From IMG/VR virus record IMGVR_UViG_3300024344_000003, positions 3,711 to 67,710 of that record: DNA of 64,000 nucleotides. One strand, 5' to 3'. How positions within the stretch are numbered: the first letter of the stretch is position 1; every line of letters begins with the position of its first letter. Source of the stretch: a virus. A program made the position numbers and the translations under genes. A model generated the notes under the pieces. It was not told the DNA's origin. It did no database searches and saw nothing but the letters and a program-made list of their open reading frames with translations. Below, piece by piece: positions 3,654-37,081 of this stretch.

Positions 3654-3974
3654 TTATTTACTACTTTCAAATATTTCACTTCCAACGTCGAATAGTTCAC
3701 ATTGTGTTGTTTCGTCATTAACCATCTTTACTTCAGCGTAATAACCTCTTAATGCTGATACAGCTGCTCTACTATCTTTACTAAATAGTATGAAGTCACT
3801 ACCTGTTGGTCTGGTTTGAGTACCACTTATATTTGTTGATACAGTTGTTGGAGTTACTGCTGTTACAGTACCCATTTCAGTTATATTTGTTGTTCCTGAA
3901 GCTTGATAATACGATGTATCACCTACTTGAACTGAATCATTAACATGTGGAAAAGTCATTGTTATTACTGGCAT
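3654..3974 (-). CDS. Small virion protein, hypothetical
   Basis: 106 aa beta-rich ORF tightly packed in the tail operon. Confidence 0.5.
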   Translation of the reverse strand: MPVITMTFPHVNDSVQVGDTSYYQASGTTNITEMGTVTAVTPTTVSTNISGTQTRPTGSDFILFSKDSRAAVSALRGYYAEVKMVNDETTQCELFDVGSEIFESSK

Positions 3975-6900: not shown

Positions 6901-9900
6901 TGAAACTTTAACACCTTTGTCAATTTTAACAGCATTAAAATCATCTCTTAATCTATCTGTTTCAACACCATTACCATATGAATAGCAATTTTTAAATACT
7001 AAAGTTTGTTCAGATCCATGATCTGCTATAGGTAGTGTATCACCAGTTTCGTAGTATAAATCTAAATCAACTGCTTCTTTAGGTTCAGTCTCCCATATAG
7101 CTGGGTTTTCTGAAGTTAATTGCTCGTTGCCTTGTTCTATAACTTTCTCTAATATTTGTATTTCATCTATGTAGTTAGTACCATAAGATCCTGATGTAGG
7201 TAAACTAAAAGTATCTTCATAAGGTGTTTGGTTGACCCAATGTCTAAAGTATATTTTGTATTTTCTTCTTTTAGCACTGTAATATTTTTTACCAGAACCT
7301 CTTCTAAAATCATACGATATATCATTACTTGTTGTTTCGTATATCTCTCCAGTTTGACCAGCTTTACTTTTAAATCTCATATAAGTACCGCCTTTTGTCA
7401 AAGCTTTTAAGAAAGAGTTAATAGTATTATTTTTATCGTGCTTTCTTCTATTAGGCCTTGATTGACCAGGAGCTCCACATCTTATTATTGTCATGTAATC
7501 TCTACCTTGCTTAGGATGTTTGTTTGAGGATTGTTGTATTCTCCAAGATACTCTTCTATCTCTTGTATCAAACCAAGATTCACCATTGGTACTACTACCA
7601 GCACCCATATTTGGTGAGTTAGGAAATAATTCTCTTGAATCTTTTATACCCCATTGCTGATCTTCTTCAGCATATTTCTCTACAATATTAGTATCAAAAG
7701 CTCCGTCTCTATTTATTTTTACAAAAAATCTACCGTAATGCTCAGGTTTTCTTTCAAACTTTTGTTCGTATACAGTTATTCTTATAGAATCACCATCAGC
7801 TAAACCATCTAACATTGTTTCACCCTCTCTTATAGGTTCAGATATTGTTACTTGGTATATATGATCATCATTATCTTTTTCTCCAGTAAAACCACCACTT
7901 ACAATATCGTATTTTTCTGTTTTACTACCATTAACATCTAGTAGTATCATGTTATCAGAAGTAAATCCTGCAGCAAAAGCAGGATTGTTCAATGGATCAG
8001 GACCAAGAAACTTAAACGACACACTACCAACTTGAGGTATATTTTCACTATGTGCTTTAGCATCAACAGCAGATAATGCTTTTCTTGTAAGCTTTATAAA
8101 GTCAGGTGCTTCGTTTTGTATATCTAATATTTTATATCTAGCTTTATCAGATACTACATCATCATTGTCATGACCTTTCTTTAATATTAAGTACATGTCT
8201 TCTTGTACTTTATTTCTTTCTGATGAAGGAAAACTTAACCAAACATTACCATCTTCAGCTAGATAGTATCTATCCATAGCTAAGTTATAATATTCGTTAG
8301 AAGTTTCTTTTATGTAATACTTAAAATGAGTTGCCCAACTAGGTGGAGTGTTATTACATATAGCTTTTAATGTAGATACTTTTGGTGCAAAAGCTTTTGA
8401 TACTTGAATTGAAGCATCTTTACTTGTAAACACAGGTGTTTGTCTATTATATTTATCCATGTAAACAACACCAACTTGATAAGTTCTTAATGACTTTATA
8501 GATAGTTCAGGTTCTTTGATAGTTGTTATATCAGCTGTATCTATAGACAAGTTTATGTCAGGTAGATTATAATTAGGTATATCGTATTGTTGTAAATAGT
8601 TACCATATATAAGTCTATTTGCTGTAATTTCTTGTGATTTAGCTAGTTTCGGTACGTTATCCCATGGTCTTAGTATTTGACTAGACTCAACTGTTTTACT
8701 AATTAAATCAGATGTTAAGTTGTAAGTAAGATCAAAGTTATTATAAGAATCTCTTTTTAAACTATCTACAACATATATGTTATTACTATTTGATTCTTTA
8801 TATAATATATCTATTTCGTCTACATCAACTGGGTAACCGGTAGGTATTGTTATTGTTAAATCTCTTAAGTTATTTATCATACCAACATTATATCCGTCAG
8901 AAGATAAATATTCAAACGTAGTTGGTCTAAATGCTAATTCGCTAAAAGGTGAATACACTGAATACTCTCCACTAGTGTATTTCCATCTATAACCAAACCT
9001 AACCATTTTCTTTTCAAACAATACACCTTCTTCTTCTAATAAAACCTCCCATGTCAATGGTACATAAGCCACTTCTGTTGGTACACTTTGCAGTTTTACC
9101 CCTACTACACCACCGCTGCTAGTAACGTTTGTTACTCTAGCTTTAATTTCATAATTTGTCTGAGATACCTGCTCTTCGTATGTAGCTGTTATAACTAGTA
9201 TATCACCTACTTGATAAACTGATTGAGGTGATAAATGTAAAGATTTACTAGTTCCAGCTGCTAAACCATTTCCATCTGAATCCGCAAATAGACCAGCTGT
9301 CGAGTTTGTAATTATACATGGTTCAGTTCCAGTTCCACTACCACCTCTTTTTGACGTAGCCATTGTAAGAGTTGGAGCTGTAATAGGAGCTTGTTTAGCT
9401 ACAGTTATATTTTCTTCTGTAAAAGCTGAAGCAGCAGCTAAATCAGCTGGTAGTATTATTTCTCCATCATATTTTGTATGAGTTGTGAAATCACCATTAC
9501 ATCCAGATTTAAAAACTTCAATATCTATTTTCTTAGGTTCAGTTCTGTTATCTGTCCAGAATAACATACCTTCTAAAACATTTATACCTGTTATATACTG
9601 ATCAGCCGTGAAGTCTAATATATTGTTTGCATCTACTAAAACAGGTGATATAATACCTTTGTTATCATCGTATTCAGCAATACAATCAGATTCATCAGCT
9701 TTTATAAACCAATATATTTTATCAGTTTCATTATTTAAAACATGTCCTATACAAACTGGGTTTGTTAATCCAAATTGCGATGCCCAGTTAGCTGTTATAG
9801 ATTTTGAATTACTATTATAAGTTTTGCCAATAATCTTTGTATTACCCCTAACATTCTGAACAGCACCTACATCACTACCTTCAGAAACTGATATTTCTAT

Positions 9901-15639: not shown

Positions 15640-18060
15640 TTATCTAGGATCAAAACCACCTAGACCTATACCACCTAATATATCATTACCCGCAGATTCA
15701 AAGTTTTTAGGTGGTTTTCCGCTTTTTCTTTGATCTATTAATTCAGATTGTTGAGATGCTTGGATTTTAGTCCTTTCATCTTTACGATCTTCCTTTTCTT
15801 TTTCTTTTTTACTTATGACACCAAGCTCCATTTGCTTTAGTTTCATGTTTATTTTAAACTCATGATTCATTAACTCTTTTTTAACTTGAGCTTCTTTCAT
15901 TAATTTACTTTCTTCTAATACAGCTTTACCTTCTTCTAACTGCATTTGAGTTGCAACTAAAGCTTGATTTTTCTCTACTTCAGCTTGTGCTGCAACCTGT
16001 TGAGCTTGTGCGTTAGCATCAGCTTGAGCTTTTATATTTCTTTCTTGCAACTCTTGATCTCTTTCTTGCTTTTTCTTTCTTCTAACCTTCAACATCTCAT
16101 TAGCTAACTTAACATTTTTAATATTCCTTATATCAATAGCATCTTCAAGATCAATTAAACCTTTTGATAAAGCTATTTGAATATTATTCTCAAGCATTTG
16201 TTTTTCTTCCTCATCAGGAGCAAGTTCTATAAATATACCAAAATCATATAAATGTAAATCCGCTAATTCATCTAACGTACCAACATTATGGTTACCTATC
16301 CTTTGTATAAATGCTTCTCTTGTTGGAGAAAACTCTAACACATCTGATATTCTTAATGAAATACCTTCTGCTACCTGAGTGGTTAAATATAAACCAGATT
16401 GCAATATATGTCTAGTTGCTGTATTACTATTAGCGGCTGCTAATTTTTGTATACCAACTAGAGCATGTTTATCTGGTGTGCTTGCATCACGTGCCTCGTT
16501 CAATCCGGTCACGTCTCTGATCATTTGTAGGTAGTAGTTATATGTTTGTATTAGAGACTGTAATTTTTGTCCTCCTGATCCAGCTTGTATCTCCTGAATA
16601 GGTACTTTACCTGGATTCATATCACCCTCTTGCGTCATTGATCTACCAATAACACTACCAGTTTGGAAGAACATGTTTAACGCTTCTTGTGGATTATAGT
16701 TTGTCCCATTACCAAGATCTATTTCAGCTAAACCATCAGCATCTAAATAAACACCATCTGGTACCATTCTAGCTAAAACCTGTTGTAGCTTTAAATGTGT
16801 TAACTGTATCATATCAGCAAAAGTAGTTGTTCTACCTACTAATGATTCTATTCTTCCTTTATACATTCTTGGAGCACATATACTATAATTCATTTTAACT
16901 TTAGTATAATCACTCTTAGGTCTCATCATGTTTGCAGCAAGTCCCCATTTAAGTAATTTGTTACTACCAACAACTAAAGCACCTTCATATAATACCTCTA
17001 AAGATCTTTTTAATTTACCAAACTGTTGTTCTAATACTTCAACAGGTGGATCAAATTGATCATCTCTTAATATTATTTTTTCTGCACCAGTCGCTGTTTC
17101 TTTTACTTTATAAACTTCATTCATATAAGTTTTATAATTAAAATATAAAACTTGCACAGTATTCTTATCGTTTTCACGTGAATCGTTTTGCGATTTGAAT
17201 AAACCAGAAGATGTGAAACCAGACGCTGATATTTCTCCAAGTTCCTCTTGTGTTATGTTAGGAAATTGTTTTTTAAGTTCATTTATAGGTATGTTTTTTA
17301 CTTCACCAACATAATATAAATCATCAAAGAATGGATCTTCTGTATAAGACCATACTAAGTTCGCTGGATCTACATATTCTACTTTAATACCCTCAGTTTG
17401 TGTAAAATGATTTTTAACAGCTCCAATACCTAGTACTGTTAAATCATAGTAAAATCTTTTTCTTATATTCTCGTATTGATTACCTTCTAAAACAACATTA
17501 ATAGCTTGTTCTTCAGCTAATTCAGAAGCTTGCTTGTAAGACAATTGCATGTGTAGCTGTAATTCATCTTCTGAATCAGGTAGTTCTTTAGGATTATTTT
17601 CTTGTAATTGAATACCAAATGCCTCTTCAGCAAAAGCAGCTAACTCTTTAGTCTCCATATCTCTTAATATAGATTCCATATACTCTGTTCTTTTACTAAC
17701 ACCATATGGATCCTGTGAAAATGCTTTTACATCATAACTTCTTTCAGCAATACCATTTACCACTATATCTACAAACTTAGGTATAATAGGTACTGGTTTC
17801 CAGTCTAAATTAAGATAAGACAAATCACCGTTAATAGATAATTCATCTTTATATTTTTGTATTGATTGTTCTCCTCTAGCGTAAAGTCTAAGTTTATGAA
17901 ATTCATTTTGATTATTATAAAATCTATTTACGCCTGAATCTTTATTGAACCATTCACTTTCTATAGCTTTAGCAACCTTCAAACCATATTCTGGCGAAAC
18001 CTTTTCTTGATCGCTTACTACTTGACTAGGAAAAAAACCTTTTAATGCTTGTTCGGCCAT
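15640..18060 (-). CDS. Portal protein
   Basis: 806 aa with a long C-terminal coiled coil; directly after TerL. Confidence 0.8.
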   Translation of the reverse strand: MAEQALKGFFPSQVVSDQEKVSPEYGLKVAKAIESEWFNKDSGVNRFYNNQNEFHKLRLYARGEQSIQKYKDELSINGDLSYLNLDWKPVPIIPKFVDIVVNGIAERSYDVKAFSQDPYGVSKRTEYMESILRDMETKELAAFAEEAFGIQLQENNPKELPDSEDELQLHMQLSYKQASELAEEQAINVVLEGNQYENIRKRFYYDLTVLGIGAVKNHFTQTEGIKVEYVDPANLVWSYTEDPFFDDLYYVGEVKNIPINELKKQFPNITQEELGEISASGFTSSGLFKSQNDSRENDKNTVQVLYFNYKTYMNEVYKVKETATGAEKIILRDDQFDPPVEVLEQQFGKLKRSLEVLYEGALVVGSNKLLKWGLAANMMRPKSDYTKVKMNYSICAPRMYKGRIESLVGRTTTFADMIQLTHLKLQQVLARMVPDGVYLDADGLAEIDLGNGTNYNPQEALNMFFQTGSVIGRSMTQEGDMNPGKVPIQEIQAGSGGQKLQSLIQTYNYYLQMIRDVTGLNEARDASTPDKHALVGIQKLAAANSNTATRHILQSGLYLTTQVAEGISLRISDVLEFSPTREAFIQRIGNHNVGTLDELADLHLYDFGIFIELAPDEEEKQMLENNIQIALSKGLIDLEDAIDIRNIKNVKLANEMLKVRRKKKQERDQELQERNIKAQADANAQAQQVAAQAEVEKNQALVATQMQLEEGKAVLEESKLMKEAQVKKELMNHEFKINMKLKQMELGVISKKEKEKEDRKDERTKIQASQQSELIDQRKSGKPPKNFESAGNDILGGIGLGGFDPR

Positions 18061-18061
18061 G

Positions 18062-20272
18062 TTATTGTTTTATTAATTTTGAATGCATACCTTTATTTTT
18101 ATATTTAGCTATACTTATATTTAACTTTTGTTTTTCTACTTTAGCATAAGGTGTATATAAATGTTTATTACAAGCCATAATCGCTAAACCTGAACTAATA
18201 GTAGCATCAAACTTTGTTCTTTTTGTTATATCAAATCTAGCCCAATCATTTAACGTTCTATTAAAATACATATTACCAGGAAGGCCATCCGATCTTTGAC
18301 CGACATGTTCCTGTATGTACATTTCAATAGCAGCGGCGTGAGCTTGTTTAACATCTTCACTAGTATTTGGTATGCCACCTATTTCTTTTTCTGCAACTGA
18401 TAGTTTATTCCAAACTTTATCAGGTCTATTCATAGAATAACCTCTATAACCTCTTCTTTTTATATAATATAATAATCTAGGTTTGTTATTCTCACATAAT
18501 AACGGCATTCCGTAAAATACTATTGCCATTAAAACGTCTTCAAAAAATATTTCTGCAGTTTGTGGTCTAGCTATATATTCTAAGAAAAATTGACTAGGTG
18601 GACAATCTTCCATACTAAATTTAGTTAAACCGTGTAAAGAACCTTTAGATCCTTTACCATCAACAGTACCTGATATATCGTAACTATCACAACCAAAGGC
18701 ACCCATGTGTTCATTACCTGGGTATTTTCTACCATTGTTGTTTACTACTTTGTTTTGTAAACTTGCTTTTGGTACCCAACTAACTCTAAACCTTCCTTTT
18801 GGATCTGGATAAAATTGTACTTTAGTATCTTTTATACCGTTTACCCATTGAAAATTTCCAATTGATATACCTTGATTTGTTTCTTCGTTGTAATCTATTT
18901 GTTCGTATATTCTAACTAAATTAAATATACTGTTGTTTGCTTCATCTCTAAAAGCATGTTCTTCTGTTCTTGGGAATTGACGATAAAATTCATTTAAACC
19001 GTCTTGATCGTTCTTTAAACCATCAGCTTCATTTTGCCAATGCTCTATAACACCTATATCAATTAAATCTCCCCATGGATCTAATCTTTCTTCTTTTGGC
19101 GTATTAAAAACAGGTATACCATATTCATCAATAAATCCCTCGTAGTTCCACTCCATTGGTATAAATAAACTGTATAAGCCAGAATTAGTTTGGCCATTAC
19201 GGTTTCGTTGAGTAACATCTGAATCATTGTATAATTTTTTAAAGTTGTCGCCACCTTTATCTAAGGCGTTTGATGTTGATCCCATCATACACTTACCAAT
19301 AATTCTACTACCTAACCTTAATGTTGTTTTTGTAACACGCCAGTTATTTAATATGTTATCTGGTCTTTCCCATTTACCACTTTCGTCGTGCGCTAATAGT
19401 TTTAACTTTTCACCATCGTAACTATTATCACCAGTATTTTTCCAATCAATAGTTGTATCAAGTCCTGATAGTTCTTCTATTTTATCATTACTAGTTAACT
19501 TTCTTCTAGTTAATTTAGTTGCTGGTACTCTATATGCTAATTCTGTTTTTGGTCGATCCATACCATCTTGGATCGGTTTAAAGAAAAAAGGATAGTTTAC
19601 TGATATTGGTACAACCTTATCTGTAAACATCTTTTTAGCATCAGCTCCAGTTTTAGATAATATTCCAAACCTAGCATCATTTGATATTGTTGCCATGTTT
19701 ACTATTTCACCTGACGCCATAAACGAAAAACCAGATCGTCTATTTTTCAAGTAACACATACCATAGCATCTTTGATCAGCTTTACAAGCTTCCCAAAATA
19801 TATAAAACAATCTATTTGCTTCTCTAAAATCTGGGTTACCCACATCTATCTTACTCCATTGTAAGTACATATAATGTGTGCCTGTTATGTATATTGGTTC
19901 ACCTAAGTTATAAAACCAGAAACCTTCTTCTCTTCTTCTAAATTCTTCTTCTATATAATCTGCATAACTTTCTTTAAAATCTTCTGGATATTCTCTCCAA
20001 TCAAATATCGTTTTGATTCTTTGTAATTCTTTTGGATATGGTGTTACCTGCCATTTGTCATGCTTAAATTTATGTATTTTTTTAGGAACTTTAGGTAGAG
20101 CTATTTTTAAATTTTGGACTTCAATAACATCTCCTATTTGACCTGTTTTAGATATAACAATAACATCATGTTCTTTATTATATCCATATTTCCATTTTTT
20201 AGACTTATTAAGTCTCTTAATAGTATTGATTTTTATATCATCTACTATTTTATACAAGGTTTGTTCGTACAT
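18062..20272 (-). CDS. terL: Terminase large subunit
   Basis: 736 aa; crAss-type Walker A (LKNRRSGFS), Walker B (LAHDESGK), GSTSN motif, RNase H-like nuclease (GCDSYD...KFDATISSG). Confidence 0.9.
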   Translation of the reverse strand: MYEQTLYKIVDDIKINTIKRLNKSKKWKYGYNKEHDVIVISKTGQIGDVIEVQNLKIALPKVPKKIHKFKHDKWQVTPYPKELQRIKTIFDWREYPEDFKESYADYIEEEFRRREEGFWFYNLGEPIYITGTHYMYLQWSKIDVGNPDFREANRLFYIFWEACKADQRCYGMCYLKNRRSGFSFMASGEIVNMATISNDARFGILSKTGADAKKMFTDKVVPISVNYPFFFKPIQDGMDRPKTELAYRVPATKLTRRKLTSNDKIEELSGLDTTIDWKNTGDNSYDGEKLKLLAHDESGKWERPDNILNNWRVTKTTLRLGSRIIGKCMMGSTSNALDKGGDNFKKLYNDSDVTQRNRNGQTNSGLYSLFIPMEWNYEGFIDEYGIPVFNTPKEERLDPWGDLIDIGVIEHWQNEADGLKNDQDGLNEFYRQFPRTEEHAFRDEANNSIFNLVRIYEQIDYNEETNQGISIGNFQWVNGIKDTKVQFYPDPKGRFRVSWVPKASLQNKVVNNNGRKYPGNEHMGAFGCDSYDISGTVDGKGSKGSLHGLTKFSMEDCPPSQFFLEYIARPQTAEIFFEDVLMAIVFYGMPLLCENNKPRLLYYIKRRGYRGYSMNRPDKVWNKLSVAEKEIGGIPNTSEDVKQAHAAAIEMYIQEHVGQRSDGLPGNMYFNRTLNDWARFDITKRTKFDATISSGLAIMACNKHLYTPYAKVEKQKLNISIAKYKNKGMHSKLIKQ

Positions 20273-21611: not shown

Positions 21612-22517
21612 TTACTTTTTCTTATTCTTAGGTTTTCTATTATCTATAAACCAATCTTTATAATAATGCCTTTTAGCTAATATATACTCAAAGTATTGAT
21701 CTACTTTCTTCTTCCAATCTTTATCAACATTTGGATTAATTACACCTGATTTAGGACTAGAAAACGTTTTATCTATCCATTTTATACTTTTTGTATCATA
21801 TAATTTAGCATTTATATGATGAAAAGATCCTCTATGTACTGTTTGCCAAACATCTATTGGTTCAATATCTTTACCTAATATAATTGAATACAAAGCACTT
21901 TCACTAACATGTGTTGTATATACTTTCTTAGCTTTAACTAAAAAATGATACAAATCCATATCTCTATGTAATATAGCTTCTTCTCCAAATAAATCCTGTA
22001 ACTCACCAATAAACTGATGTTTTGTTATAGGATGTGGTTTAAACCATATATTGTGTTTGTATTTTTTTGATATTGCTATCATTTTGTTTAAACAAGCTAT
22101 TTCTTTTAACTTATTTGATCCAGGTAAAACAACTAAATAATCCTTATAAGGATATTTTTTTGTATCTACTTTTCTTCTATGCTGATATTTGTTAGCTTGT
22201 TTATCTTTAATATTTTTATTTAAATATCCAGACCAATCTAAAATATCTACATTTTCATCATTGTAAGCATCGGTTATTTGTTCTGTTCTAAATTTTAAAT
22301 TTAAAGGTTGCATTATAAAACTAGTACCATATGATGTATAACCCATGGTTTTAAAATATGGCATTTCTTCTGCCATAACATCATAACTAGTTTCTAAACC
22401 AGCTTCGCTTGCTTTTCTAATTACATAACCCTCAACTTGTTCTAAGTCATCTAGGTTTGTGTTTTTCTTTAAGGGTCCTATCCTTCCGTCTAAAACCTTT
22501 TTGTTAAACATTTCCAT
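21612..22517 (-). CDS. KpsS/KpsC-like (capsule-synthesis family) GT-B glycosyltransferase, candidate CMP-Kdo transferase
   Basis: YLVVLPGS, IWFKPHP and LVKAKKVYTTHVSESALYSIILGKDI resemble the KpsC/KpsS motifs K[PT]HP and VYTVTS..GFEALL.GKPV; recognised by eye only. Confidence 0.55.
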   Translation of the reverse strand: MEMFNKKVLDGRIGPLKKNTNLDDLEQVEGYVIRKASEAGLETSYDVMAEEMPYFKTMGYTSYGTSFIMQPLNLKFRTEQITDAYNDENVDILDWSGYLNKNIKDKQANKYQHRRKVDTKKYPYKDYLVVLPGSNKLKEIACLNKMIAISKKYKHNIWFKPHPITKHQFIGELQDLFGEEAILHRDMDLYHFLVKAKKVYTTHVSESALYSIILGKDIEPIDVWQTVHRGSFHHINAKLYDTKSIKWIDKTFSSPKSGVINPNVDKDWKKKVDQYFEYILAKRHYYKDWFIDNRKPKNKKK

Positions 22518-22570: not shown

Positions 22571-24112
22571 CTAAGCGCAATCGTTTAGGTTCTGAACAAC
22601 ACCAACGCTACTCATGATTCTAATATATTTATTATCTGACAACTGACCAACTCTATAATATCCAGCTATTAAGTGAGTACCATTACCATCTTTAACAACA
22701 TCTCCAGCAACCGGAAGTGCACCACTACCATTGTGATAATACGTTTGATCAAGTGTTACAGCAGAATCATCACAAACTGTAAGGAAGTTTACAGTATCAG
22801 AAGATGTATATGCTGTGCTAGATGCTCTATTTAAATAATCAACCATAGTAGACATATCTTTATATGTTGTATTATATCTAGATGTTTGTGTTGTTGTGGT
22901 TGTGTTCCAACTAGTAGTTGTGTTTTGACTAGTATTAAATGTAGTTGTCGTACTGTGACTTGTGTTATACGTAGTTGTAGTACTTTGGCTAGTATTAAAT
23001 GTAGTTGTAGTACTATGTGACGTATTATAAGTTGTGTTATAGGTTGTAGTAGTACTTTTAGACGTATTATATGTAGTCGTAGTATCGGTTGCTCTAGTTG
23101 TGTTCCAGGTTGTAGTGGTTGTGCGAGCGGTGTTGTACGTTGTGGTAGTACTAGAACTTGTACTTTGACTTGTTTGCCACGTTGTAGTAGTAGAGTGCGA
23201 CGTATTATACGACGTGCTAGTACTATGACTTGTTGCAAACGTTGTAGTTGTATTAGTTGTGTGGCTGGTATTATATGTCGTAGTCGTTGAGTGATTAGTT
23301 GAGTGACTAGTATTATACGTAGTAGTAGTATTTGAACTAGTAGCAAATGTTGTCGTTGTACTCTTAGACGTGTTATATGTCGTAGTAGTACTTTTAGATG
23401 TACTCCAAGTTGTTGTCCAAGTGGTCGTAGTACTATGTGATGTATTATACGTAGTTGTAGTATCATGAGACGTGTTGTAAGTCGTAGTCGTATCATGAGA
23501 TGTACTATATGTTGTTTCAGTAGTATGGGATGTACTCTGACTTGTTTGCCATGTTGTAGTGGTACTATGTGATGTCGCTGTAGAGTGACTAGTATTGTAC
23601 GTAGTGTTATATGTTGTTGTAGTACTTTGAGACGTAGCCCAAGTTGTTGTAGTATCGTGAGAAGTACTTCTATATGTATTTGAACTAGTGTTCCAACTTG
23701 TATTATATGTTGTCGTAGTATTATGAGATGTATTATACGTTGTTGTCGTATTATAAGACGTTGTAGTACTATGACTAGTAGCATACGTAGTATTGTACGT
23801 GGTAGTAGTACTATGAGATGTACTACGAGATGTATTAAACGTGGTAGTAGTACTGTGAGACGTATTATGAGACGTACCAGTGGAGTGACTAGTATTGTAA
23901 GTCGTAGTTGTATTATGACTAGTGTTATACGTAGTAGTAGTGCTATGACTTGTATTCCACGATGTAGTTGTTGTATGTGATGTATTATATGTAGTAGTAG
24001 TGTTTTTACTAGTATTAAAATACGTTTGATAATACGAGTCGTAAGACGTAGCGTGATACGTCTCTCTACTTGTAAGCCAAGAAGTCCACCATGATGTTGT
24101 AGTATTAGGCAT
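22571..24112 (-). CDS. Thr/Ser-rich decamer-repeat protein 2 (mucin-like or beta-solenoid fibre) with small C-terminal globular domain
   Basis: 513 aa; repeated [HK]STTTT[YWF]NTS units; C-terminal domain YYHNGSGALPVAGD...GYYR. Confidence 0.8.
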   Translation of the reverse strand: MPNTTTSWWTSWLTSRETYHATSYDSYYQTYFNTSKNTTTTYNTSHTTTTSWNTSHSTTTTYNTSHNTTTTYNTSHSTGTSHNTSHSTTTTFNTSRSTSHSTTTTYNTTYATSHSTTTSYNTTTTYNTSHNTTTTYNTSWNTSSNTYRSTSHDTTTTWATSQSTTTTYNTTYNTSHSTATSHSTTTTWQTSQSTSHTTETTYSTSHDTTTTYNTSHDTTTTYNTSHSTTTTWTTTWSTSKSTTTTYNTSKSTTTTFATSSNTTTTYNTSHSTNHSTTTTYNTSHTTNTTTTFATSHSTSTSYNTSHSTTTTWQTSQSTSSSTTTTYNTARTTTTTWNTTRATDTTTTYNTSKSTTTTYNTTYNTSHSTTTTFNTSQSTTTTYNTSHSTTTTFNTSQNTTTSWNTTTTTQTSRYNTTYKDMSTMVDYLNRASSTAYTSSDTVNFLTVCDDSAVTLDQTYYHNGSGALPVAGDVVKDGNGTHLIAGYYRVGQLSDNKYIRIMSSVGVVQNLNDCA

Positions 24113-25145
24113 CTTTTCCTCCGTTTTTAATTAACATATTATTTATAAAGTAATTATCATTAGAATTTAATCTAACCATAGTATATATTGTTTCAGAGCT
24201 ATCAAAGTTTATACTAGTAATCTCTACTTCAGTATTATCAACTTTATACAACTTATCACCAACAACTAATTCATTCATATTTTTTTCAATCCAAGATCCA
24301 TCTCTTTTAATAATCATTGGATGATTTCCAGTAACGATCAATAATCCATCATTTATATTATAAACACCTTTACATTTAGCTCCATAAGATAACACACCTG
24401 TTTTTACTATTAAATTAGGATTAGACGGATCTTCACAAGTTAAAATATCTTGATCTGTATTTATTTTAAAAATATTTTTTGTTTCAGTTTCTGATATATG
24501 CACTGTTGATGTGTCTAATATACCATGTGTCCTTGCTTTTTGATTTAAAATCTTTAATGGTATAAAATAGTTATTTCTATTATAATACGTGTTTTCTGGT
24601 GGGTTTAATCCCGTAACCTCTGTAAATGACACGTTATTCCAATAAAACATCATCCATTCATCTGTTGTTCCGCCACTAAAATTCCACCAACTTACTTTAC
24701 AATTATCTTTAGCTTTTCTTTCACAAAATCCAGCAAAGCTTGGATGTAGATCGTCATCTACATAAGTATCCATTAGTATTACATCGTATTTCTGTGGTTC
24801 ACTTACTTGATCAAACCACTTACCTTCAATTACATTTACATTAGGTTTATCTGCCGCCCATTCATTTAGTTTAACTATTATTTGAGGGTGACATTCAACT
24901 ATAGTATGAGAAGCAGGATTTCTCGCTTGAACAGCATCGGATAATATACCCATACCAAAACCACATTCTAAAACATGATCTCCTTCAGATACAGCAACCT
25001 CAGCCATTTTAGTCATAATAGGTTGTTCCCAAGACATCATAACTTCTCTGACATCCTTCATTTCTGGACAATACCATGTTATTTTATCATCTTCAAATGT
25101 TAATGTTGCTGCTAAATATGAATCTCTAAATTGATGTTCTGCCAT
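24105..25145 (-). CDS. RMT2/GAMT-like SAM methyltransferase fused to a degenerate Hint domain
   Basis: VMMSWEQPIM...VLECGFGMGI...HTIVECHP matches GAMT/RMT2. The C-terminal ~135 aa has Hint blocks: TGNH (TxxH), ELVVGDKL, NYFINNMLIKN. Confidence 0.75.
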   Translation of the reverse strand: MAEHQFRDSYLAATLTFEDDKITWYCPEMKDVREVMMSWEQPIMTKMAEVAVSEGDHVLECGFGMGILSDAVQARNPASHTIVECHPQIIVKLNEWAADKPNVNVIEGKWFDQVSEPQKYDVILMDTYVDDDLHPSFAGFCERKAKDNCKVSWWNFSGGTTDEWMMFYWNNVSFTEVTGLNPPENTYYNRNNYFIPLKILNQKARTHGILDTSTVHISETETKNIFKINTDQDILTCEDPSNPNLIVKTGVLSYGAKCKGVYNINDGLLIVTGNHPMIIKRDGSWIEKNMNELVVGDKLYKVDNTEVEITSINFDSSETIYTMVRLNSNDNYFINNMLIKNGGKDA

Positions 25146-25156
25146 AATTATTTAAT

Positions 25157-26464
25157 TTATATACATCCTCTAAAACAACCGCCGCCGCCACCGCCACCAC
25201 CATCAGTAAATGTATTTCTACTTGTGTATTGACTCGTGTTCCATCCGGTTATTGTTGTACCAGTATTTCTTGTTGTAAATGTATCAGTTTGGTGACTTGT
25301 TTGCCAAGTCGTTGTTGTTGAATGACTTGTTGCGTATGTTGTAGTAGTATTTTTACTTGTACTATATACTGTAGTTGTACTATGACTAGTTGCATAAGAA
25401 GTCATTGTTGTACGACTAGTATTATATGTTGTTGTTGTATTATACGATGTGGTATATGACGTAGTAGTACTCCTACTTGTATTATACGTTGTATTGTATG
25501 TTGTAGTTGTACTGTGAGAAGTACTATGATACGTATTATAAGTTGTAGTTGTACTATGAGACGTTCCTGTACTATGACTGGTATTATACGTAGTTGAAGT
25601 AGTATGAGACGTACTTCTTGATGTACTCCAAGTTGTAGCATAATATGTTGTGTATGTAGTCGTCGTAGTTTTACTAGTATTCCACGTGGTAGTTGTCGAA
25701 TGACTTGTACTATGATACGTATTATATGTGGTAGTCGTATTATATGTAGTAGTTGTACTTCTAGTTGTATTCCAATATGTGGTATACGTAGTAGTTGTAT
25801 CATGCTCTGTATTATACGTTTCAGTAGTCGTTTTACTAGTGTTATACGTAGTAGTAGTTGTTTTACTAGTATTGTATGTCGTGGTTGTATTAGAACTTGT
25901 ACTTTGACTTGTGTTGAAAGTTGTCGTTGTTGAATGACTTGTTTCATATGTTGTTGTCGTACTTCTAGTAGTGTTCCACGTTGTAGTAGTTGTTTTACTT
26001 GTATTATACGTAGTAGTATACGTGGTAGTTGTACTCTTACTTGTATTATAAGTAGTAGTAGTTTCAGTTGTTCTAGTAGTATTATACGTAGTGGTTGTAT
26101 TATTACTAGTGCTATAAGTTGTTGTGGTGCTCTTACTAGTATTCCAATAACTCGTCCAAGTTGTAGTCGTACTATGACTTGTATTGTAAGTAGTAGTAGT
26201 ATCTTGACTAGTAGCCCACTCAGTAGTGGTATTAGTCGTATGACTAGTGTTATATGTTGTTGTTGTAGAATGACTAGTAGAACGACTAGTATTGTATGTT
26301 GTTGTAGTTGATTTACTTGTTGACCAAGTAGTAGTTGTACTTTTAGAAGTATTATATGTTGTTGTCGTACTTTTAGACGTACTCCAAGTCGTGGCCGTTG
26401 AAGTTGAAAACGAACCTGTTGTGTTCTTTAACCAGAAATCTTTTCTCCATAAAAATCTTAACAT
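25157..26464 (-). CDS. Thr/Ser-rich decamer-repeat protein 1
   Basis: 435 aa; same decamer repeats; ends DGGGGGGGGCFRGCI. Confidence 0.8.
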   Translation of the reverse strand: MLRFLWRKDFWLKNTTGSFSTSTATTWSTSKSTTTTYNTSKSTTTTWSTSKSTTTTYNTSRSTSHSTTTTYNTSHTTNTTTEWATSQDTTTTYNTSHSTTTTWTSYWNTSKSTTTTYSTSNNTTTTYNTTRTTETTTTYNTSKSTTTTYTTTYNTSKTTTTTWNTTRSTTTTYETSHSTTTTFNTSQSTSSNTTTTYNTSKTTTTTYNTSKTTTETYNTEHDTTTTYTTYWNTTRSTTTTYNTTTTYNTYHSTSHSTTTTWNTSKTTTTTYTTYYATTWSTSRSTSHTTSTTYNTSHSTGTSHSTTTTYNTYHSTSHSTTTTYNTTYNTSRSTTTSYTTSYNTTTTYNTSRTTMTSYATSHSTTTVYSTSKNTTTTYATSHSTTTTWQTSHQTDTFTTRNTGTTITGWNTSQYTSRNTFTDGGGGGGGGCFRGCI

Positions 26465-26475
26465 AATTGACTGTT

Positions 26476-27315
26476 TTAGCTGAAGTTACCAACATAATTA
26501 CAAAGCACTTTATCAGTAGCATGGACATAATATGTTATTATGTGAATAGCGTTAGCAGATGTAACCCAATTTAATGTTGCGGCATCAGGTGTTAACATAT
26601 AACTTGGTAAAGCTGCAAAAGCTAATGATCCTACACTTGCAGGATTTGTTATAACTATCATACCAGATTGGCCAACGTTTTCAGAAGCAACAGTTAAAGC
26701 TAAAGTATTAGTAGCATTTGTTGCGGTTACATTAAAGTTATCATTAGTAGTTAAATCCATGGTATGCGTATTACTTGACTCACTTGCGGTTGTCACAGTT
26801 CTACGTATGTTTTGAGTTACTTTAATACTGCCAGTTACATCTATATCACCTGCAAAAGTTACAGTACCACCTCCACTAGTATTTATATCTGAAATATTTA
26901 TTAATTCTAAAGTATCAGCACCTGAAACTCTCCTAAAGCCATTTAACCAACTGTTATCTGCATTGTTTCTAAACTTTAATGTTCCGGCTGAAAGAAAATT
27001 GTTATCGGATTGTATGTAGGAAGTGGCTTCTACATTGCCTGTTACACTAATCCCTGAACTTGCCGTACTTAGCTTAACACTATTGTCGTAAAATAATCTA
27101 ACCCTACCGTTGTCGCCATCACTCATATCAATATAAGTATCACCGCCAGCGGCTTGAAGATACATATATTGGCCTTGTATATATAATGCTCCTACTCCGT
27201 TCTCACCTAAATAAGTGTTTGAACCATTGTGGTAGAAATATGCATCCGCACTAGTTCCTAGTTTTAAGTGAACATCATCTGCGAGTTCTAAATGACTATG
27301 TGTTGGTATTCCCAT
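26476..27315 (-). CDS. Tail fibre-associated protein
   Basis: 279 aa beta-rich, Gly/Ser/Thr-rich fibre-like segments; follows the main fibre gene. Confidence 0.55.
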   Translation of the reverse strand: MGIPTHSHLELADDVHLKLGTSADAYFYHNGSNTYLGENGVGALYIQGQYMYLQAAGGDTYIDMSDGDNGRVRLFYDNSVKLSTASSGISVTGNVEATSYIQSDNNFLSAGTLKFRNNADNSWLNGFRRVSGADTLELINISDINTSGGGTVTFAGDIDVTGSIKVTQNIRRTVTTASESSNTHTMDLTTNDNFNVTATNATNTLALTVASENVGQSGMIVITNPASVGSLAFAALPSYMLTPDAATLNWVTSANAIHIITYYVHATDKVLCNYVGNFS

Positions 27316-27332
27316 ATTATTACAGTTAAGTT

Positions 27333-27363
27333 AATACTGGCGGCACAAATGTACCGCCGTATT
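27333..27363 (-). terminator. Intergenic GC-rich hairpin (terminator-like)
   Basis: AATAC-TGGCGGCAC-AAAT-GTACCGCC-GTATT. Confidence 0.5.
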
Positions 27364-27373
27364 TTAATTTTTA

Positions 27374-29788
27374 TTAAGATGTTGGATATGTAGGAGTTGC
27401 TGTTGCTGCTCCTTTAGCAGAAGTAATCGTAACAACTATATCCTCACTTGGTACTGCCGCAAAATGGAAAGTTAAATGGTCATCAGATGAAGAACCATTG
27501 TTATCTTTATGATACTCACATATAACAACTTCTTTTGAAGTAAGTCCGTGACATTCAACAATAACATTTGGTGTATTAAGACTGTGATCTATTAAAGCTT
27601 TCTTTTGCGTACTGTCTAATGAACTAACATCAATAGTTGCTGTTACACATCTATCATTACCAATGTTATGAGGTGTCATAAACACAGTATCGTTACTACC
27701 ATTTTCAGCTTGCGTTTGAGTTGCTTTTGTATTTGAAGTTGAACCATCAGCAACATTAAGTATTGTTCTAAGAGCTGAATCTCCTATTTCTTCTATTACC
27801 CCTGCGCCTGAACTATCTCTACCTAATACTACATTTGTAGCACTTACATTTTGTATTTTAGCGTATGTTACTTGATCATCCGCTATGTGAGCTGTATCAA
27901 TCGATCCATCAGCGTAGTGTTCTGAATTAATAGCATCATCAGCGATATGAGCGTTATCAATACTACCATCAACATAATGTTCTGAATTAATAGCATTATC
28001 TTGAATATTAGTTCCGTCTATTGCATCTAATCCAATATAATCATGTGCTATTGCTGTACCTTGCCATGTACCTGAACCAATTGTGCCACAGCTTACAAGA
28101 TTTGGCATTGCTGTAATTTCATCATCGAAATAAGCAGCTAAATCTGTAACGGCAACTTGTTTCATTGTACCACCGTCATTAAGTACCACTCTATCAGCAT
28201 CAGCAACTGTAGTTGATGAAGCAGATGTGCCACCGTCCATTATATTAAGTTCAGCAACTGTTGCAGATATTGCTGTTGTGCTTGGATCAGCTGAGAATAA
28301 AGCTACATAACCCGTTACGTTTGGTAACGTGTATGTTACATCAGCTCCAGCAACAACTGATTTAAGTGTACCATCGTGACCATCAGCAGTAGTACCTTCA
28401 AATACAACTCCATTAGAAGTAGTTACTGTAGTAACATTATTTGTTGTTGTATCTCCAGTTACTACTAAATCACCTGGTATTGTAATAGTATCAGAACCAT
28501 CACCAATCGATAATGCCCCACCTTGTGAAGTTGCTAGAAGATTTGTTGCTGCAGCTGCCGCAGTAGATGCGCCAGTACCACCGTTAGCAATTGCTAAATC
28601 AGTACCAGACCAATTACTATTGTTACAGCTTGTTAAATAACCATAATCTTCAATTCTATTCTTTATAGCAAGCGCGGTCATTAAATGATCATCTGCATCA
28701 GAAGCTTCTGAAGTAATATCTATATCGTCAACTGTATGACCACCAATTATTAAACTACCTGTTACATTACCAGTTAAATTACCAGAAAAAGTAGTTGCTG
28801 TTAATAATCCTGAACTAGAGTTAAATGTTAAATTACTACCAGATTTAGGTCCTAGATCACCAGTTGCTGCAGTAGCAAATAATGGGAAACATGTAGTATC
28901 AGAAGATTCATCTGCAACTGTTACTGTTGTAGCAATCGCTGCAGTACCTGTTGTATCTTGGTTAAGTGTACCAACAACAAGATCAATAGTACCATCAGCA
29001 TCTTGATATGTTGCTGTAATACCTGTTTCAGTATTACCTGTAAACATAGCACCAGCTATATCTTGTACCTCTTCAGTTGTTTGTACTGCATCATCAACAT
29101 AAGTCTTAATAGATTCAGATGTTGCTAAAGTTGTAGCTGAAGCGTCACTAAAGTCATCAGTATCGTTAATAGCTGTAACTGTAACACCCATTGCTAAAGC
29201 ATCAATGTTTGCTGTACCGTCAATATATAGGTTATTCCATTCTTTTGTAGAAGATCCTAAATCTTTATCACCGTCGCTTCCAGGTATAAAAGCAGATCCA
29301 TTCCATCTTGCTTCGCCTCCATCTACTCTTAATGTTATTCTACCATCATTCCCAAAGTCGATCCATTCACCTGATCCATCACCTGGATCGGTTATTCTAC
29401 CAACTTTTAATGAGGTATTGTAAATTGATGTTATTCCTGTTTGTGCAGCGTCTAAATTTACTGTTACTGTATCAGTACTGCCAACGGCTGTTGTTATACC
29501 AGTTCCACCAGCCACATCTAACGTGTTGCCATCTTGTATTGTTTCAGGTGTACCAGAGTCACCTGTTAAACTGAAACTGCTCATACTTCCTGAGGAAGTA
29601 CCGATTGACTGCCAAGTTGAATTAGCGCCGTCGTAATATTTTAAGGTACCACTATCATAGATCAGCTTACCAGCAGTATTACCGGCATCGCCAGTCGTTG
29701 AGTGATCTACAACAAAGTCCTGTAATTGATTGTCATTAAGGTCTATATTACCTTTGACATCTAAATGATTTAAAATAGGTATTGCCAT
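27374..29788 (-). CDS. Tail fibre protein
   Basis: 804 aa; fibre motifs (LAIANGGTGAST, LGRDSSGAGVIEEI) and tandem INSEHYxDGSIDxAHIADD repeats. Confidence 0.7.
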   Translation of the reverse strand: MAIPILNHLDVKGNIDLNDNQLQDFVVDHSTTGDAGNTAGKLIYDSGTLKYYDGANSTWQSIGTSSGSMSSFSLTGDSGTPETIQDGNTLDVAGGTGITTAVGSTDTVTVNLDAAQTGITSIYNTSLKVGRITDPGDGSGEWIDFGNDGRITLRVDGGEARWNGSAFIPGSDGDKDLGSSTKEWNNLYIDGTANIDALAMGVTVTAINDTDDFSDASATTLATSESIKTYVDDAVQTTEEVQDIAGAMFTGNTETGITATYQDADGTIDLVVGTLNQDTTGTAAIATTVTVADESSDTTCFPLFATAATGDLGPKSGSNLTFNSSSGLLTATTFSGNLTGNVTGSLIIGGHTVDDIDITSEASDADDHLMTALAIKNRIEDYGYLTSCNNSNWSGTDLAIANGGTGASTAAAAATNLLATSQGGALSIGDGSDTITIPGDLVVTGDTTTNNVTTVTTSNGVVFEGTTADGHDGTLKSVVAGADVTYTLPNVTGYVALFSADPSTTAISATVAELNIMDGGTSASSTTVADADRVVLNDGGTMKQVAVTDLAAYFDDEITAMPNLVSCGTIGSGTWQGTAIAHDYIGLDAIDGTNIQDNAINSEHYVDGSIDNAHIADDAINSEHYADGSIDTAHIADDQVTYAKIQNVSATNVVLGRDSSGAGVIEEIGDSALRTILNVADGSTSNTKATQTQAENGSNDTVFMTPHNIGNDRCVTATIDVSSLDSTQKKALIDHSLNTPNVIVECHGLTSKEVVICEYHKDNNGSSSDDHLTFHFAAVPSEDIVVTITSAKGAATATPTYPTS

Positions 29789-35323: not shown

Positions 35324-35523
35324 TGTATACCATGCCCAGCGTGTTTATCGTAGTGAACAGTGTCATTTACGTTAACGCCTTCTACAAGGTTGCCAATTGA
35401 TACGATTTTTGCTTTTAAGTACCTGTTGTCAGTGTCTAATTTTTCAGTTAGTTCTAATCCTGCAACGGTAGTAGGCTTTTGCTTAATTTTTTCTACTATT
35501 ATATAGTTATTTACCGCTTTCAT
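35266..35523 (-). CDS. groES: Co-chaperonin GroES
   Basis: KAVNNYIIVEK...AGLEL...KIVSIG...VNVNDTVHY...IRIQDI; adjacent to GroEL. Confidence 0.85.
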   Translation of the reverse strand: MKAVNNYIIVEKIKQKPTTVAGLELTEKLDTDNRYLKAKIVSIGNLVEGVNVNDTVHYDKHAGHGIQWKDKLYYVIRIQDIVIVE

Positions 35524-37081
35524 GTCCTACTCTTATATTAGATATTACACAATCTGCGGAAATTATAGTAGAAACTACAGAAATTGCGTTCTTTAACGCA
35601 GTTTTTGTCACTAAGGCGGGGTCTACGATTCCAGATTTGATCATATTGACGCTTTTACCGGTTGTAACGTCGTATCCAACACCTTTTTTGGTCGGTGTTT
35701 CGTAGTTTTCAATACCAGCGTTTGCCATTATGGTAAAAAATGGAGATTTTATGGCTTCTACTAGTATTTTCTCCCCTATATTTTTAGGTTTTATACTATT
35801 TGCAGCGTTTAACAGCGCAATTCCTCCGCCAGGGACAATCCCTTCTTGTAAAGCTGCTTTAACTGCGTAAATAGCATCCTCAACTCTATCTTTTTTCTCC
35901 TTTAATTCTATTTTAGAGTTACCACCTACTTTAATTATGCCAACATAACCTGTTAACATAGCTAATCGTTCTTGTAATTTCTTCTTAAAAAACGGTTCTT
36001 TTTCGTTTTTTATTGATTTTTTAACAGTATCAATCCTTTCTTGTAGACTTTTCTTATCTACACCAGTTGTCAGGACTGTAGTTCTGTTATTAGTTACAGA
36101 TGTTACCACTTCGCCTAAACAATCTGGCTGGATCAGATCTAAATCATCTCCTAGTTCTTCGTTCATCACCGACGCGCCAGTTAAAAATGCTAAATCTTCT
36201 ATTGTATCAAACCTTCCAGCACCAAAACCAGGAGGATCTACAATGTTAACATTAATATTACCTTTAACTTTATTCATCAAAAGTGCCGATTTTACTTGAG
36301 GATCGACATCTGCAATAATTAATAATGATCTCTTATTCTTTATTACATGTTCTAATATACTTTGTATTTTTCTAATACTAGGTATTGTTGATGAAACTAT
36401 TAAAACTACAGGGTTTTGAAGTTCTGCTATCTGTTTATCTTTATTCGTTGCAAAATGTGATGATGTTAATCCACTATCGAACTGCACACCGTCTACTATT
36501 TCTGCATACGTTTCATCAGTATCACTTTCTTCCATTAATACTACGCCATCTTTACCTACTTTTTCGTAAGCTGACGCAATAATGCCACCAAGTTCCCGAT
36601 CATTATTACACGAAATCGTTGAAACGTCGGTAAGCTGAGTGCCAGATACTGCTTTGGAGCTTCTTGAAAGGTACTCCATAACCTTTTTACTTGCTGATTG
36701 AATTCCATTTTTAATATCTCTTGTCGATGCACCTAAATATTCAGGTTCACCCACTGTTTTTAATAGTGATTCAGCAAGGACGATAGCCGTAGTGGTACCA
36801 TCACCTGCTTCTTTCACTGTGTTTTTACTTGCTTCTTTAATAAGTGTCGCGCCTATATTTTCAACGGGATCAAACAAGACAACAGATTCTGCTACTGTTA
36901 CACCGTCTTTTGTGATCACTGGTTTTCCAAGTCCGTCTTCGTAAATTACACACTTACCGGAAGCACCAAGAGTAGATTTTACTGCAGTTGCTAGTTTTTC
37001 TACTCCACTCATAATTTTATTCTTGGCAGTATCGCCAAAATTAAGATCTTTCACGATCTCACTCGGATGATTAAATTCCAT
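35507..37081 (-). CDS. groEL: Chaperonin GroEL
   Basis: ITKDGVTVA, AGDGTTTA, EGIVPGGG, GIVDP motifs; 524 aa with no GGM tail. Confidence 0.95.
   Translation of the reverse strand: MEFNHPSEIVKDLNFGDTAKNKIMSGVEKLATAVKSTLGASGKCVIYEDGLGKPVITKDGVTVAESVVLFDPVENIGATLIKEASKNTVKEAGDGTTTAIVLAESLLKTVGEPEYLGASTRDIKNGIQSASKKVMEYLSRSSKAVSGTQLTDVSTISCNNDRELGGIIASAYEKVGKDGVVLMEESDTDETYAEIVDGVQFDSGLTSSHFATNKDKQIAELQNPVVLIVSSTIPSIRKIQSILEHVIKNKRSLLIIADVDPQVKSALLMNKVKGNINVNIVDPPGFGAGRFDTIEDLAFLTGASVMNEELGDDLDLIQPDCLGEVVTSVTNNRTTVLTTGVDKKSLQERIDTVKKSIKNEKEPFFKKKLQERLAMLTGYVGIIKVGGNSKIELKEKKDRVEDAIYAVKAALQEGIVPGGGIALLNAANSIKPKNIGEKILVEAIKSPFFTIMANAGIENYETPTKKGVGYDVTTGKSVNMIKSGIVDPALVTKTALKNAISVVSTIISADCVISNIRVGHESGK

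Follow-up and report, generated by a model that had tools for sequence, protein, structure and literature searches.

The window analysed here is a stretch of 64,000 nucleotides (nt) from IMG/VR virus record IMGVR_UViG_3300024344_000003 (positions 3,711 to 67,710), which derives from an uncultured marine phage with a GC content of about 33%. Between its tail-fibre-like genes and the gene for TerL lies a compact four-gene cassette consisting of fibre 1, a fusion gene termed MTase-Hint, fibre 2 and a gene for a protein of 301 amino acids (aa). MTase-Hint joins a predicted methyltransferase (MTase) dependent on S-adenosylmethionine (SAM) to a C-terminal Hint domain, and the analysis concerns this protein and its possible substrate, the glycine-rich C-terminal tail of fibre 1. 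The cassette contains the following features:

25157..26464, minus strand: fibre 1, 435 aa, 46% Thr, decamer repeats, conserved N-terminus MLRFLWRKDFW
25160..25201, minus strand: C-terminal tail of fibre 1, G8-C-F-R-G-C-I; Arg codon AGA at 25169-25171, stop at 25157-25159
24105-25145, minus strand: MTase-Hint gene, 346 aa
24555..25145, minus strand: predicted GAMT/RMT2-type class I SAM methyltransferase domain, aa 1-197, SAM loop LECGFGMG
24525..24554, minus strand: interdomain linker, aa 198-207, of lower model confidence (pLDDT, predicted local distance difference test); the -1 residue is aromatic or His family-wide
24117..24524, minus strand: BIL-type Hint domain, aa 208-343, catalytically dead as judged by its residues; G208 codon at 24522-24524
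24105..24112, minus strand: 8-nt overlap GATGCCTAA between the end of MTase-Hint and the start of fibre 2, D-A-stop over M-P-N
22571..24112, minus strand: fibre 2, a Thr-rich paralogue of 513 aa that ends in a globular domain of about 95 aa; no Gly-Arg tail
21612..22517, minus strand: 301-aa gene closing the cassette, phrog_26179, function unknown; used as anchor for sister cassettes

The original prediction, made from the DNA alone, had placed upstream of the fusion gene a Thr-rich gene ending in poly-glycine and CFRGCI, and the open reading frame (ORF) at 25157-26464 bore this out. The Thr-rich frame is the translated one, since the same frame runs into a Hint or S74-like domain in sister phages, and its repeats bear R, K or H at one fixed position, the first of each decamer. 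Fibre 1 ends in GGGGGGGGCFRGCI-stop, i.e., G8-CFRGCI, with the glycines in mixed GGT and GGC codons. Joining of fibre 1 to the MTase by readthrough or frameshift was considered and rejected, as the frames of the two genes differ, the stop of fibre 1 is conserved and it is followed by another in-frame stop.

In homologous cassettes the tail follows the motif Gly(2-8)-[D]-C-x-R-[GN]-C-[IQNM]-stop, in which x is F, M, S, A, P, G or L, and the G, C, R and C were invariant in an alignment of 22 distinct tails. This motif was present at 37 of the 40 Hint-bearing loci with a readable fibre 1 end (about 22 distinct sequences), a retention far from chance; a variant in locus L043 reads C-L-R-G-C plus six further residues. 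Because the residue x varies and two Hint-bearing loci (L040 and L041) have tails without cysteine, 'GCF' is not the conserved feature but Arg-Gly is, and the 'CF' that had been taken for a Hint entry motif did not hold up. The arginine is the invariant tail residue, and the MTase, not the Hint, is the constant companion of the tail.

Residues 34-129 of MTase-Hint matched rat and human guanidinoacetate N-methyltransferase (GAMT) with an E-value of 2e-13 (phmmer against the PDB), and homologues both close and distant, down to 98% identity, bear the precomputed assignment PF27704 (GuanidinoAc_N-MeTrfase). This family is absent from the local Pfam copy, in which generic methyltransferase models matched below threshold only, and NCBIfam likewise gave only generic sub-threshold methyltransferase matches; for one homologue the source record gives the name 'protein arginine N-methyltransferase 2'. 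The AlphaFold model of the full-length protein (pLDDT 91, predicted template modelling score 0.73) had as best Foldseek neighbours the GAMT structures 1xcj and 3orh (E 6e-11, template modelling (TM) score by target 0.68-0.70), which are complexes with S-adenosylhomocysteine and guanidinoacetate. The class I Rossmann SAM-binding fold is present, including the Gly-rich loop and the acidic residue after strand 2. Among the 104 full-length family members on which all conservation counts are based, the glycines of the SAM loop (LECGFGMG) and the acidic E84 were essentially invariant (about 100%). E40 (104/104) and D126 (97/104) align with the guanidino-binding/catalytic residues E45 and D134 of GAMT (rat numbering; phmmer alignment), the role of E45 reportedly being described by Komoto et al. 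(2004). D134 is the proposed catalytic base of GAMT (PMC12471008). The earlier description of the domain as RMT2/GAMT-like was thus confirmed by sequence match, PF27704 homologues and fold neighbours, and homology identifies the N-terminal domain as a guanidino-group N-methyltransferase of the GAMT/RMT2 type whose catalytic set is intact and whose activity is predicted.

In L028, L029 and L049 (MTase-Hint at about 5980-7065), the catalytic Asp is replaced by Phe (LFAY versus MDTY), and the fibre tail is cut down to ..GG-C-F-R-N-C-I, with an extra upstream Cys (HSCWMTQ). In L074 and L076-L080, which represent another phage context, the MTase has distant relatives (36-47% identity) whose genes, of 200-240 aa, lie in tandem pairs with no Gly-Arg tail nearby.

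About 130 related loci were looked at overall. For the enzyme, 71 IMG/VR loci and 10 assembly contigs were fetched and 80 were scored; an adjacent ORF ending in Gly-run-(C-x)-R-[GN] occurred at 67 of the 80 MTase loci, compared to 4 of 644 non-adjacent ORFs. The 13 misses comprised three loci that do have the tail (L016, L025 and L057; regular-expression miss, frame break or degenerate form), two contig ends (L015 and L061), the variant tail of L043, the six distant tandem-MTase loci (36-47% identity) and L047, which is considered below. Enzyme and tail were found together in three architectures:

Architecture B (this window): tail-bearing fibre 1, followed by MTase-Hint and fibre 2
Architecture C: fibre 1 with a globular end and a G-run-R-G-run-SDPGG..P tail, followed by the MTase, a second gene that is weakly MTase-like, and fibre 2
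Architecture E: a fibre of about 2000 aa that carries a genuine S74 chaperone (73.8 bits), followed by the MTase and a protein of about 190 aa whose end reads ..TTRST..S-G(8-12)-R-G-xx-P

The tail lies upstream of the MTase on Thr-rich fibres in B and C and downstream on the 190-aa protein in E. In the MTase tree, E stands opposite B and C across a 98/98 split, and C forms one clade (100/99). With the 301-aa gene as anchor, 80 loci were fetched, of which 48 could be read with enough upstream sequence: MTase and tail were both present at 20, and both absent at 26, 21 of which show fibre 1 and are informative. The remaining two had an MTase and no scored tail, one being cut and the other being the frame-broken L025/L114, which has the tail. 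No tail without enzyme was found among these 48 (0 of the 21 informative MTase-less cassettes). The sub-clade in which D126 is replaced by Phe has the most degenerate tail (GG-CFRNC). These results demonstrate that the MTase is tightly tied to a Gly-run-Arg-Gly C-terminal tail, independent of position.

The C-terminal domain of MTase-Hint, folded alone, gave a complete Hint fold (pLDDT 91.2). Its nearest Foldseek neighbours were BIL2 (6y75/6tmm; E 8e-8, TM 0.77-0.79) and the Clostridium thermocellum BIL (2lwy; TM 0.74/0.80), followed by more than 30 inteins and Hedgehog (1at0/6tyy). A family profile matched BIL2 6tmm with an E-value of 1e-5, BIL profile matches spanning 1e-5 to 3e-4, and a phmmer search against 1.8 billion representatives linked the domain with E 1.3e-17 to a protein, P0180, whose Hint domains pass the Pfam thresholds. 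The phage domain itself stayed below the Pfam cut-offs (Intein_splicing 15.4 bits versus 35.8; Vint 13.7 bits versus 27). Among deposited phage genomes, the domain alone as query returned only an annotated intein at E 0.1, and a canonical Hint query only ordinary inteins in terminase and helicase genes. The Hint assignment of the original prediction was therefore borne out by the BIL2 profile match, the P0180 bridge and the fold neighbours, and sequence and model both identify the domain as a BIL-type Hint. P0180 is a metagenomic, membrane-anchored protein of 1207 aa with four tandem Hint domains, three of which start with CCFPAGT and end in ..NG, and forms the sequence bridge to the Pfam Hint models.

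As the Hint folds completely alone, there is no missing strand for CFRGCI to supply, and the split-Hint strand complementation that had been suggested is not needed: the domain has its own strand 1, GILDTSTVHI, aligned with CIVEGTLVHI of active relatives. Since the fused Hint kept this first strand, the six-residue tail is also not simply its missing start, and an origin of the tail as a leftover N-terminal Hint strand was rejected.

Residues were mapped against BIL2 (C1A, N143A) and the active relatives. G208 takes the place of Cys1, TGNH (272-275) that of TxxH and VGD (295-297) that of the GD motif; K340 corresponds to the penultimate His, N341 to the terminal Asn and G342 to +1. The residues originally described for this copy were all recovered in the alignment. 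Two of them, the TxxH His and the terminal Asn, are present here but are not family features: the His occurs in 48 of the 104 members (Gln in 37) and the Asn in 9, this copy among them. The Cys1 site is Gly in 102 members and Ala in two, never Cys, Ser or Thr, and the penultimate-His site is Lys in 62, Arg in 29 and Gly in 10, with His in 0/104. Judged by these positions, the Hint is clearly a catalytically dead pseudo-enzyme. It is nevertheless free of stops and frameshifts in all 104 members, and its ratio of non-synonymous to synonymous substitution rates (dN/dS) was 0.08-0.24 in 7 of 10 pairs, compared to 0.05-0.19 for the MTase domain, demonstrating that the dead Hint is retained under purifying selection. 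In the L004/L024 lineage (MTase-Hint at 6001-7050) the Hint is fast, with a terminal branch of 2.6 substitutions per site, and the MTase domain stays constrained.

In seven sister phages, here termed type A (L088, L089, L095, L102, L103, L138 and L158), the Thr-rich fibre 1 runs directly into a Hint domain in cis. Such uninterrupted fibre-Hint fusions had been proposed as a search target; a word-index search for proteins of more than 606 aa bearing this Hint had found none, a false negative of the method, as the fusions later surfaced by synteny. The in-line Hints lie at:

L102:4940-5503
L088:6171-6755
L138:5263-5880
L095:6410-6976
L089:2111-2608
L158:6846-7334
L103:6338-6901

They occupy the same slot as MTase-Hint, ahead of the same fibre 2 and 301-aa genes, without an MTase and without a Gly-Arg tail, and are the nearest relatives of the dead Hint (33-43% identity, E 3e-15 to 2e-9). 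All look active from their residues: they possess Cys1 (EE|CIVEGT; entries EE|C or DD|C), TTxxH and ANGILTHN, with Tyr-Asn (TYN) in L158. Lys stands at +1 or +2 in 7/7, and in 5/7 the Hint is followed by a Cys-framed tail that is about 25-45 residues long and contains four to five Cys. The Lys together with the Cys-framed tail resembles BIL2-type lysine-directed chemistry, and by this analogy the type A fibre end may be matured through a thioester. In L102 and L103 the post-Hint tails have a C-T-R-G segment; its likeness to the fibre tail is anecdotal and was not used as evidence. In the Hint tree, the dead Hints form one group (92/94) and the in-line Hints another (99/96). Synteny and trees thus indicate firmly that the dead Hint descends from a fibre-capping Hint at the same slot, in agreement with the simpler option of the original prediction, insertion of the MTase into an ancestral fibre-Hint gene.

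A second kind of MTase-less sister cassette, type D, ends fibre 1 differently. Its fibre 1 has the same globular domain as that of type C (E 4e-37) and continues as ..SC-GGG-F|SDRSLKKDI..EIDVEFKQI, an S74-like end aligned from model position 1 that scores 17-18 bits versus a cut-off of 22:

L144:7472-7828, divergent, sub-threshold Peptidase_S74 end
L141:6881-7237, divergent, sub-threshold Peptidase_S74 end

The next gene in type D is a homologue of the second gene of C (E 1e-16 to 5e-30). Because globular domain and second gene are common to both, C and D differ essentially as 'MTase plus Gly-Arg tail' and 'self-cleaving chaperone', and the 'SDP' after the Gly run of type C tails may be an S74 remnant. 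The second gene encodes a family of about 188 aa that is weakly methyltransferase-like (VLVIGLGIG; L007:7570-8142, L144:7833-8399, L141:7237-7800) and takes up the slot separating the two fibre genes, whether or not a cassette has the GAMT-like enzyme; Pfam and PHROGs are silent on it.

Based on these results, MTase-Hint would be a two-domain accessory protein of the phage fibre module. We infer that its MTase acts on an RGG-like site in the neighbouring fibre protein, namely the one arginine that does not vary within the flexible Gly-run-(C-x)-Arg-Gly tail. This residue is the candidate methyl acceptor because the chemistry of the family is directed at guanidino nitrogens and the catalytic residues are intact, because the Arg is invariant while the Cys pair and the carrier protein vary, because the tail is absent wherever the enzyme is absent, and because the lineage with D126 replaced by Phe goes with a degenerate tail. 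By sequence, fold and synteny, its Hint descends from the active-looking, self-processing type of cap found at the end of fibre 1 in cis in the sister phages; once the MTase/tail module had come between fibre and cap, the Hint lost Cys1, the penultimate His and the terminal Asn. With low confidence, we suggest that the now non-catalytic Hint holds the enzyme on the fibre end or chaperones that end, the job of its ancestors while covalently attached. To the joint reading, that the enzyme methylates the tail arginine and that the dead Hint persists as a relic with a non-catalytic docking or chaperone role, we assign even odds.

Contact between MTase-Hint and the tail was also addressed by modelling. 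Co-folding MTase-Hint with SAM and the tail gave a median ipSAE (interaction prediction score from aligned errors) of 0.34 (runs 0.34, 0.02 and 0.55), with 0.00 for the best of three controls; the runs agreed in at least 12% of contacts, the pLDDT of the partner was at least 30, and no interface was given. In calibration, 58 of 80 solved complexes came up to this mark, as did 2 of 110 mismatched pairs; at values of up to 0.60 only 7 of those 80 did so, together with both passing mismatches, so that the model lends a contact weak support. Docking of the MTase on the fibre, as proposed originally, is possible but weakly backed by the co-fold; the link between Hint and Cys pair stands for about one event, and in L040 and L041 the Hint is retained although the tail has no Cys. 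Co-occurrence of Hint and Cys pair was accordingly rejected as proof of coupling, being mostly phylogenetic (about one evolutionary event of two).

Several points weigh against methylation of the tail with the Hint as adaptor. The proposal is drawn from gene neighbourhood and family chemistry, and the substrate of GAMT itself is a small molecule. In L047, a true exception, the MTase occurs without the tail. Many loci are near-duplicates from one broad marine phage group, so part of the co-occurrence reflects shared ancestry, and instead of 67 independent contrasts there are about three: A against B, D against C, and E. L040 and L041 have a Hint and a tail without Cys (G9-R-G-G-P-G-G-G-Q or G9-LPP-R-G5-DAP), the Hint of the L004/L024 lineage is near-neutral (omega, i.e., dN/dS, about 0.7) with Ala at position 208, and the co-fold does not tell which domain touches the tail.

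Some of these points lend themselves to a different explanation, in which the MTase acts elsewhere, on a small guanidino compound, on the Arg, Lys or His at the repeat position or on a host molecule, and the tail has a solely structural role at the end of a trimeric fibre (an inter-chain disulfide or metal knot, or a flexible linker), the two being neighbours through a shared recombination module. The small-molecule substrate of GAMT (1xcj), the basic or His residue at a fixed place in each repeat and the tail-less enzyme of L047 would all fit, and the Cys pair after a Gly-rich stretch recalls the cystine knots of collagen. However, the tail occurs on either side of the enzyme and on unrelated carriers (a Thr-rich fibre of 400-2000 aa or a 190-aa protein), which is hard to fit with hitch-hiking. 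The Cys pair is also dispensable and the Arg is not, no MTase-less relative retains the tail, and the tail degenerates where the catalytic Asp is lost. We therefore regard action elsewhere as possible but rather unlikely.

It is improbable that the Hint is a functionless relic of the insertion of the MTase module between fibre and cap. The loss of all catalytic residues, the omega of about 0.7 in L004/L024 and a sister clade that replaced the Hint with another gene and does without it are what such a relic would leave. On the other hand, the reading frame is intact in all 104 members, dN/dS in most pairs is near that of the MTase domain, Gly208 is kept in 102/104 along with other invariant positions, and 140 useless codons are rarely kept by phage genomes. 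The split-Hint-like reading of the original prediction, in which the Hint acts in trans on the Gly-Cys bond of its neighbour (N-S acyl shift, cleavage or ligation) and CFRGCI supplies nucleophile and strand, is very improbable: although both tail cysteines are invariant where present, Gly-Cys is a classic Hint entry found after the same fibre in active relatives (EE|C or DD|C), Hint and Cys pair coincide at 37 of 40 readable loci and the co-fold exceeded its controls weakly, no canonical catalytic residue is a family-wide feature (TxxH His 48/104, penultimate His 0/104, terminal Asn 9/104), the fold is complete with its own strand 1, the residue after the Cys varies, L040 and L041 combine the Hint with a Cys-less tail and the Hint/Cys-pair correlation amounts to about one event.

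The window also carries the following genes:

15640-18060, minus strand: portal gene
18062-20272, minus strand: TerL
26476-29788, minus strand: tail-fibre-like genes
35507-37081, minus strand: GroEL

GroEL is phage-encoded, and relatives (also L007:1-1160) encode GroES as well, upstream of the fibre module. The 8-nt overlap between MTase-Hint and fibre 2 accounts for the conserved 'DA' end of the former and implies translational coupling; the start of fibre 2, MPNTTT, is kept among relatives. The C-terminal 95 or so residues of fibre 2 (22571-22860; ..YYRVGQLSDNKYIRIMSSVGVVQNLNDCA) form a small globular domain that resembles by eye the type C/D fibre 1 globular domain preceding the tail or S74 end, and a family search for this domain found none. 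The 301-aa gene follows the fibre cassette directly in all architectures (55-91% identity) and had no Pfam or NCBIfam match; it is possibly a further fibre-modifying or assembly factor. PHROGs has no family for MTase-Hint, for fibre 1 or fibre 2, for the 190-aa proteins that bear the tail or for the second MTase-like gene. A search of deposited phage genomes yielded no match at the DNA level, and only one metagenomic jumbo-phage record matched the MTase part.

MTase-Hint combines known families in a domain architecture that is new, and the enzyme-substrate pair predicted here is new as well. Literature searches returned nothing relevant on phage Hint-methyltransferase fusions, phage arginine methyltransferases, methylarginine in virions or Thr-rich marine fibres, and no description of an MTase-dead Hint paired with a Gly-run-Arg tail. 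If true, the proposed reaction would, as far as these searches show, be the first phage-encoded protein arginine methylation of a virion component, with a simple enzyme-substrate pair of a 200-aa enzyme and a 14-residue tail. In the broader view, which we hold tentatively and at somewhat less than even chances, marine phages have a dedicated system that methylates a single Arg in a poly-Gly fibre tail as one of at least three interchangeable fibre finishes (S74 self-cleaving chaperone, active Hint cap, Gly-Arg tail plus methyltransferase), with an ex-Hint recycled as the adaptor that brings enzyme to substrate. Such a natural series of one fibre finished by an S74 chaperone, an active Hint or a Gly-Arg tail with a trans enzyme would open the question of how self-processing domains come to be recruited, how they are displaced and become pseudo-enzymes, and of what a phage fibre needs at its C-terminus for assembly or host recognition. 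The dead Hint would illustrate cleanly how a Hint can be retained for a role other than catalysis.

Among known systems, GAMT (PDB 1xcj, 1khh, 3orh; PF27704) is closest to the MTase domain, being its best sequence and fold match with the same class I SAM fold and Glu/Asp pair. In contrast to GAMT, the phage MTase has about 200 aa, is phage-encoded within a fibre module and Hint-fused, and its substrate is probably a protein arginine rather than free guanidinoacetate. RGG/GAR motifs are substrates of eukaryotic protein arginine methyltransferases (PRMTs), and the tail resembles them in having an Arg among glycines in a flexible region with a dedicated methyltransferase adjoining; it differs in its single Arg at the extreme C-terminus, bracketed by two Cys in this window, and in an enzyme that is GAMT-type, not PRMT-type. 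By description, yeast Rmt2 provides a functional model for the MTase: this GAMT-related, seven-beta-strand enzyme methylates protein arginine, forming delta-N-methylarginine on Rpl12 R67 (PMC10265986). Rmt2 is, however, eukaryotic and larger, with a single ribosomal target and neither Gly-run tail nor Hint.

For the Hint domain, Tetrahymena BUBL1 BIL2 (6y75/6tmm) and the C. thermocellum BIL (2lwy) are the closest solved folds (TM 0.74-0.80) and share its block order. In BIL2, transfer of the N-extein to lysine depends on C1, the block-B His and the terminal Asn (PMC8616854), whereas the phage Hint has Gly for C1 and Lys for the penultimate His and lies at the protein C-terminus with nothing to release. 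Split inteins and split Hint domains consist of fragments that need partner strands; the phage Hint is complete alone, and the six-residue tail has no role in its fold. The nearest relatives remain the type A in-line caps, in the same slot and on the same kind of fibre, which differ by their setting in cis and their retained Cys1, TxxH and His-Asn. The Peptidase_S74 chaperone (PF13884), known from tail fibres and endosialidases, takes the same fibre-end position in alternative cassettes, with 73.8 bits in type E and a sub-threshold 17-18 bits in type D, and is an established self-removing C-terminal fibre cap; its fold and its Ser-Lys chemistry are unrelated to those of the Hint, and the analogy between them is one of function only.

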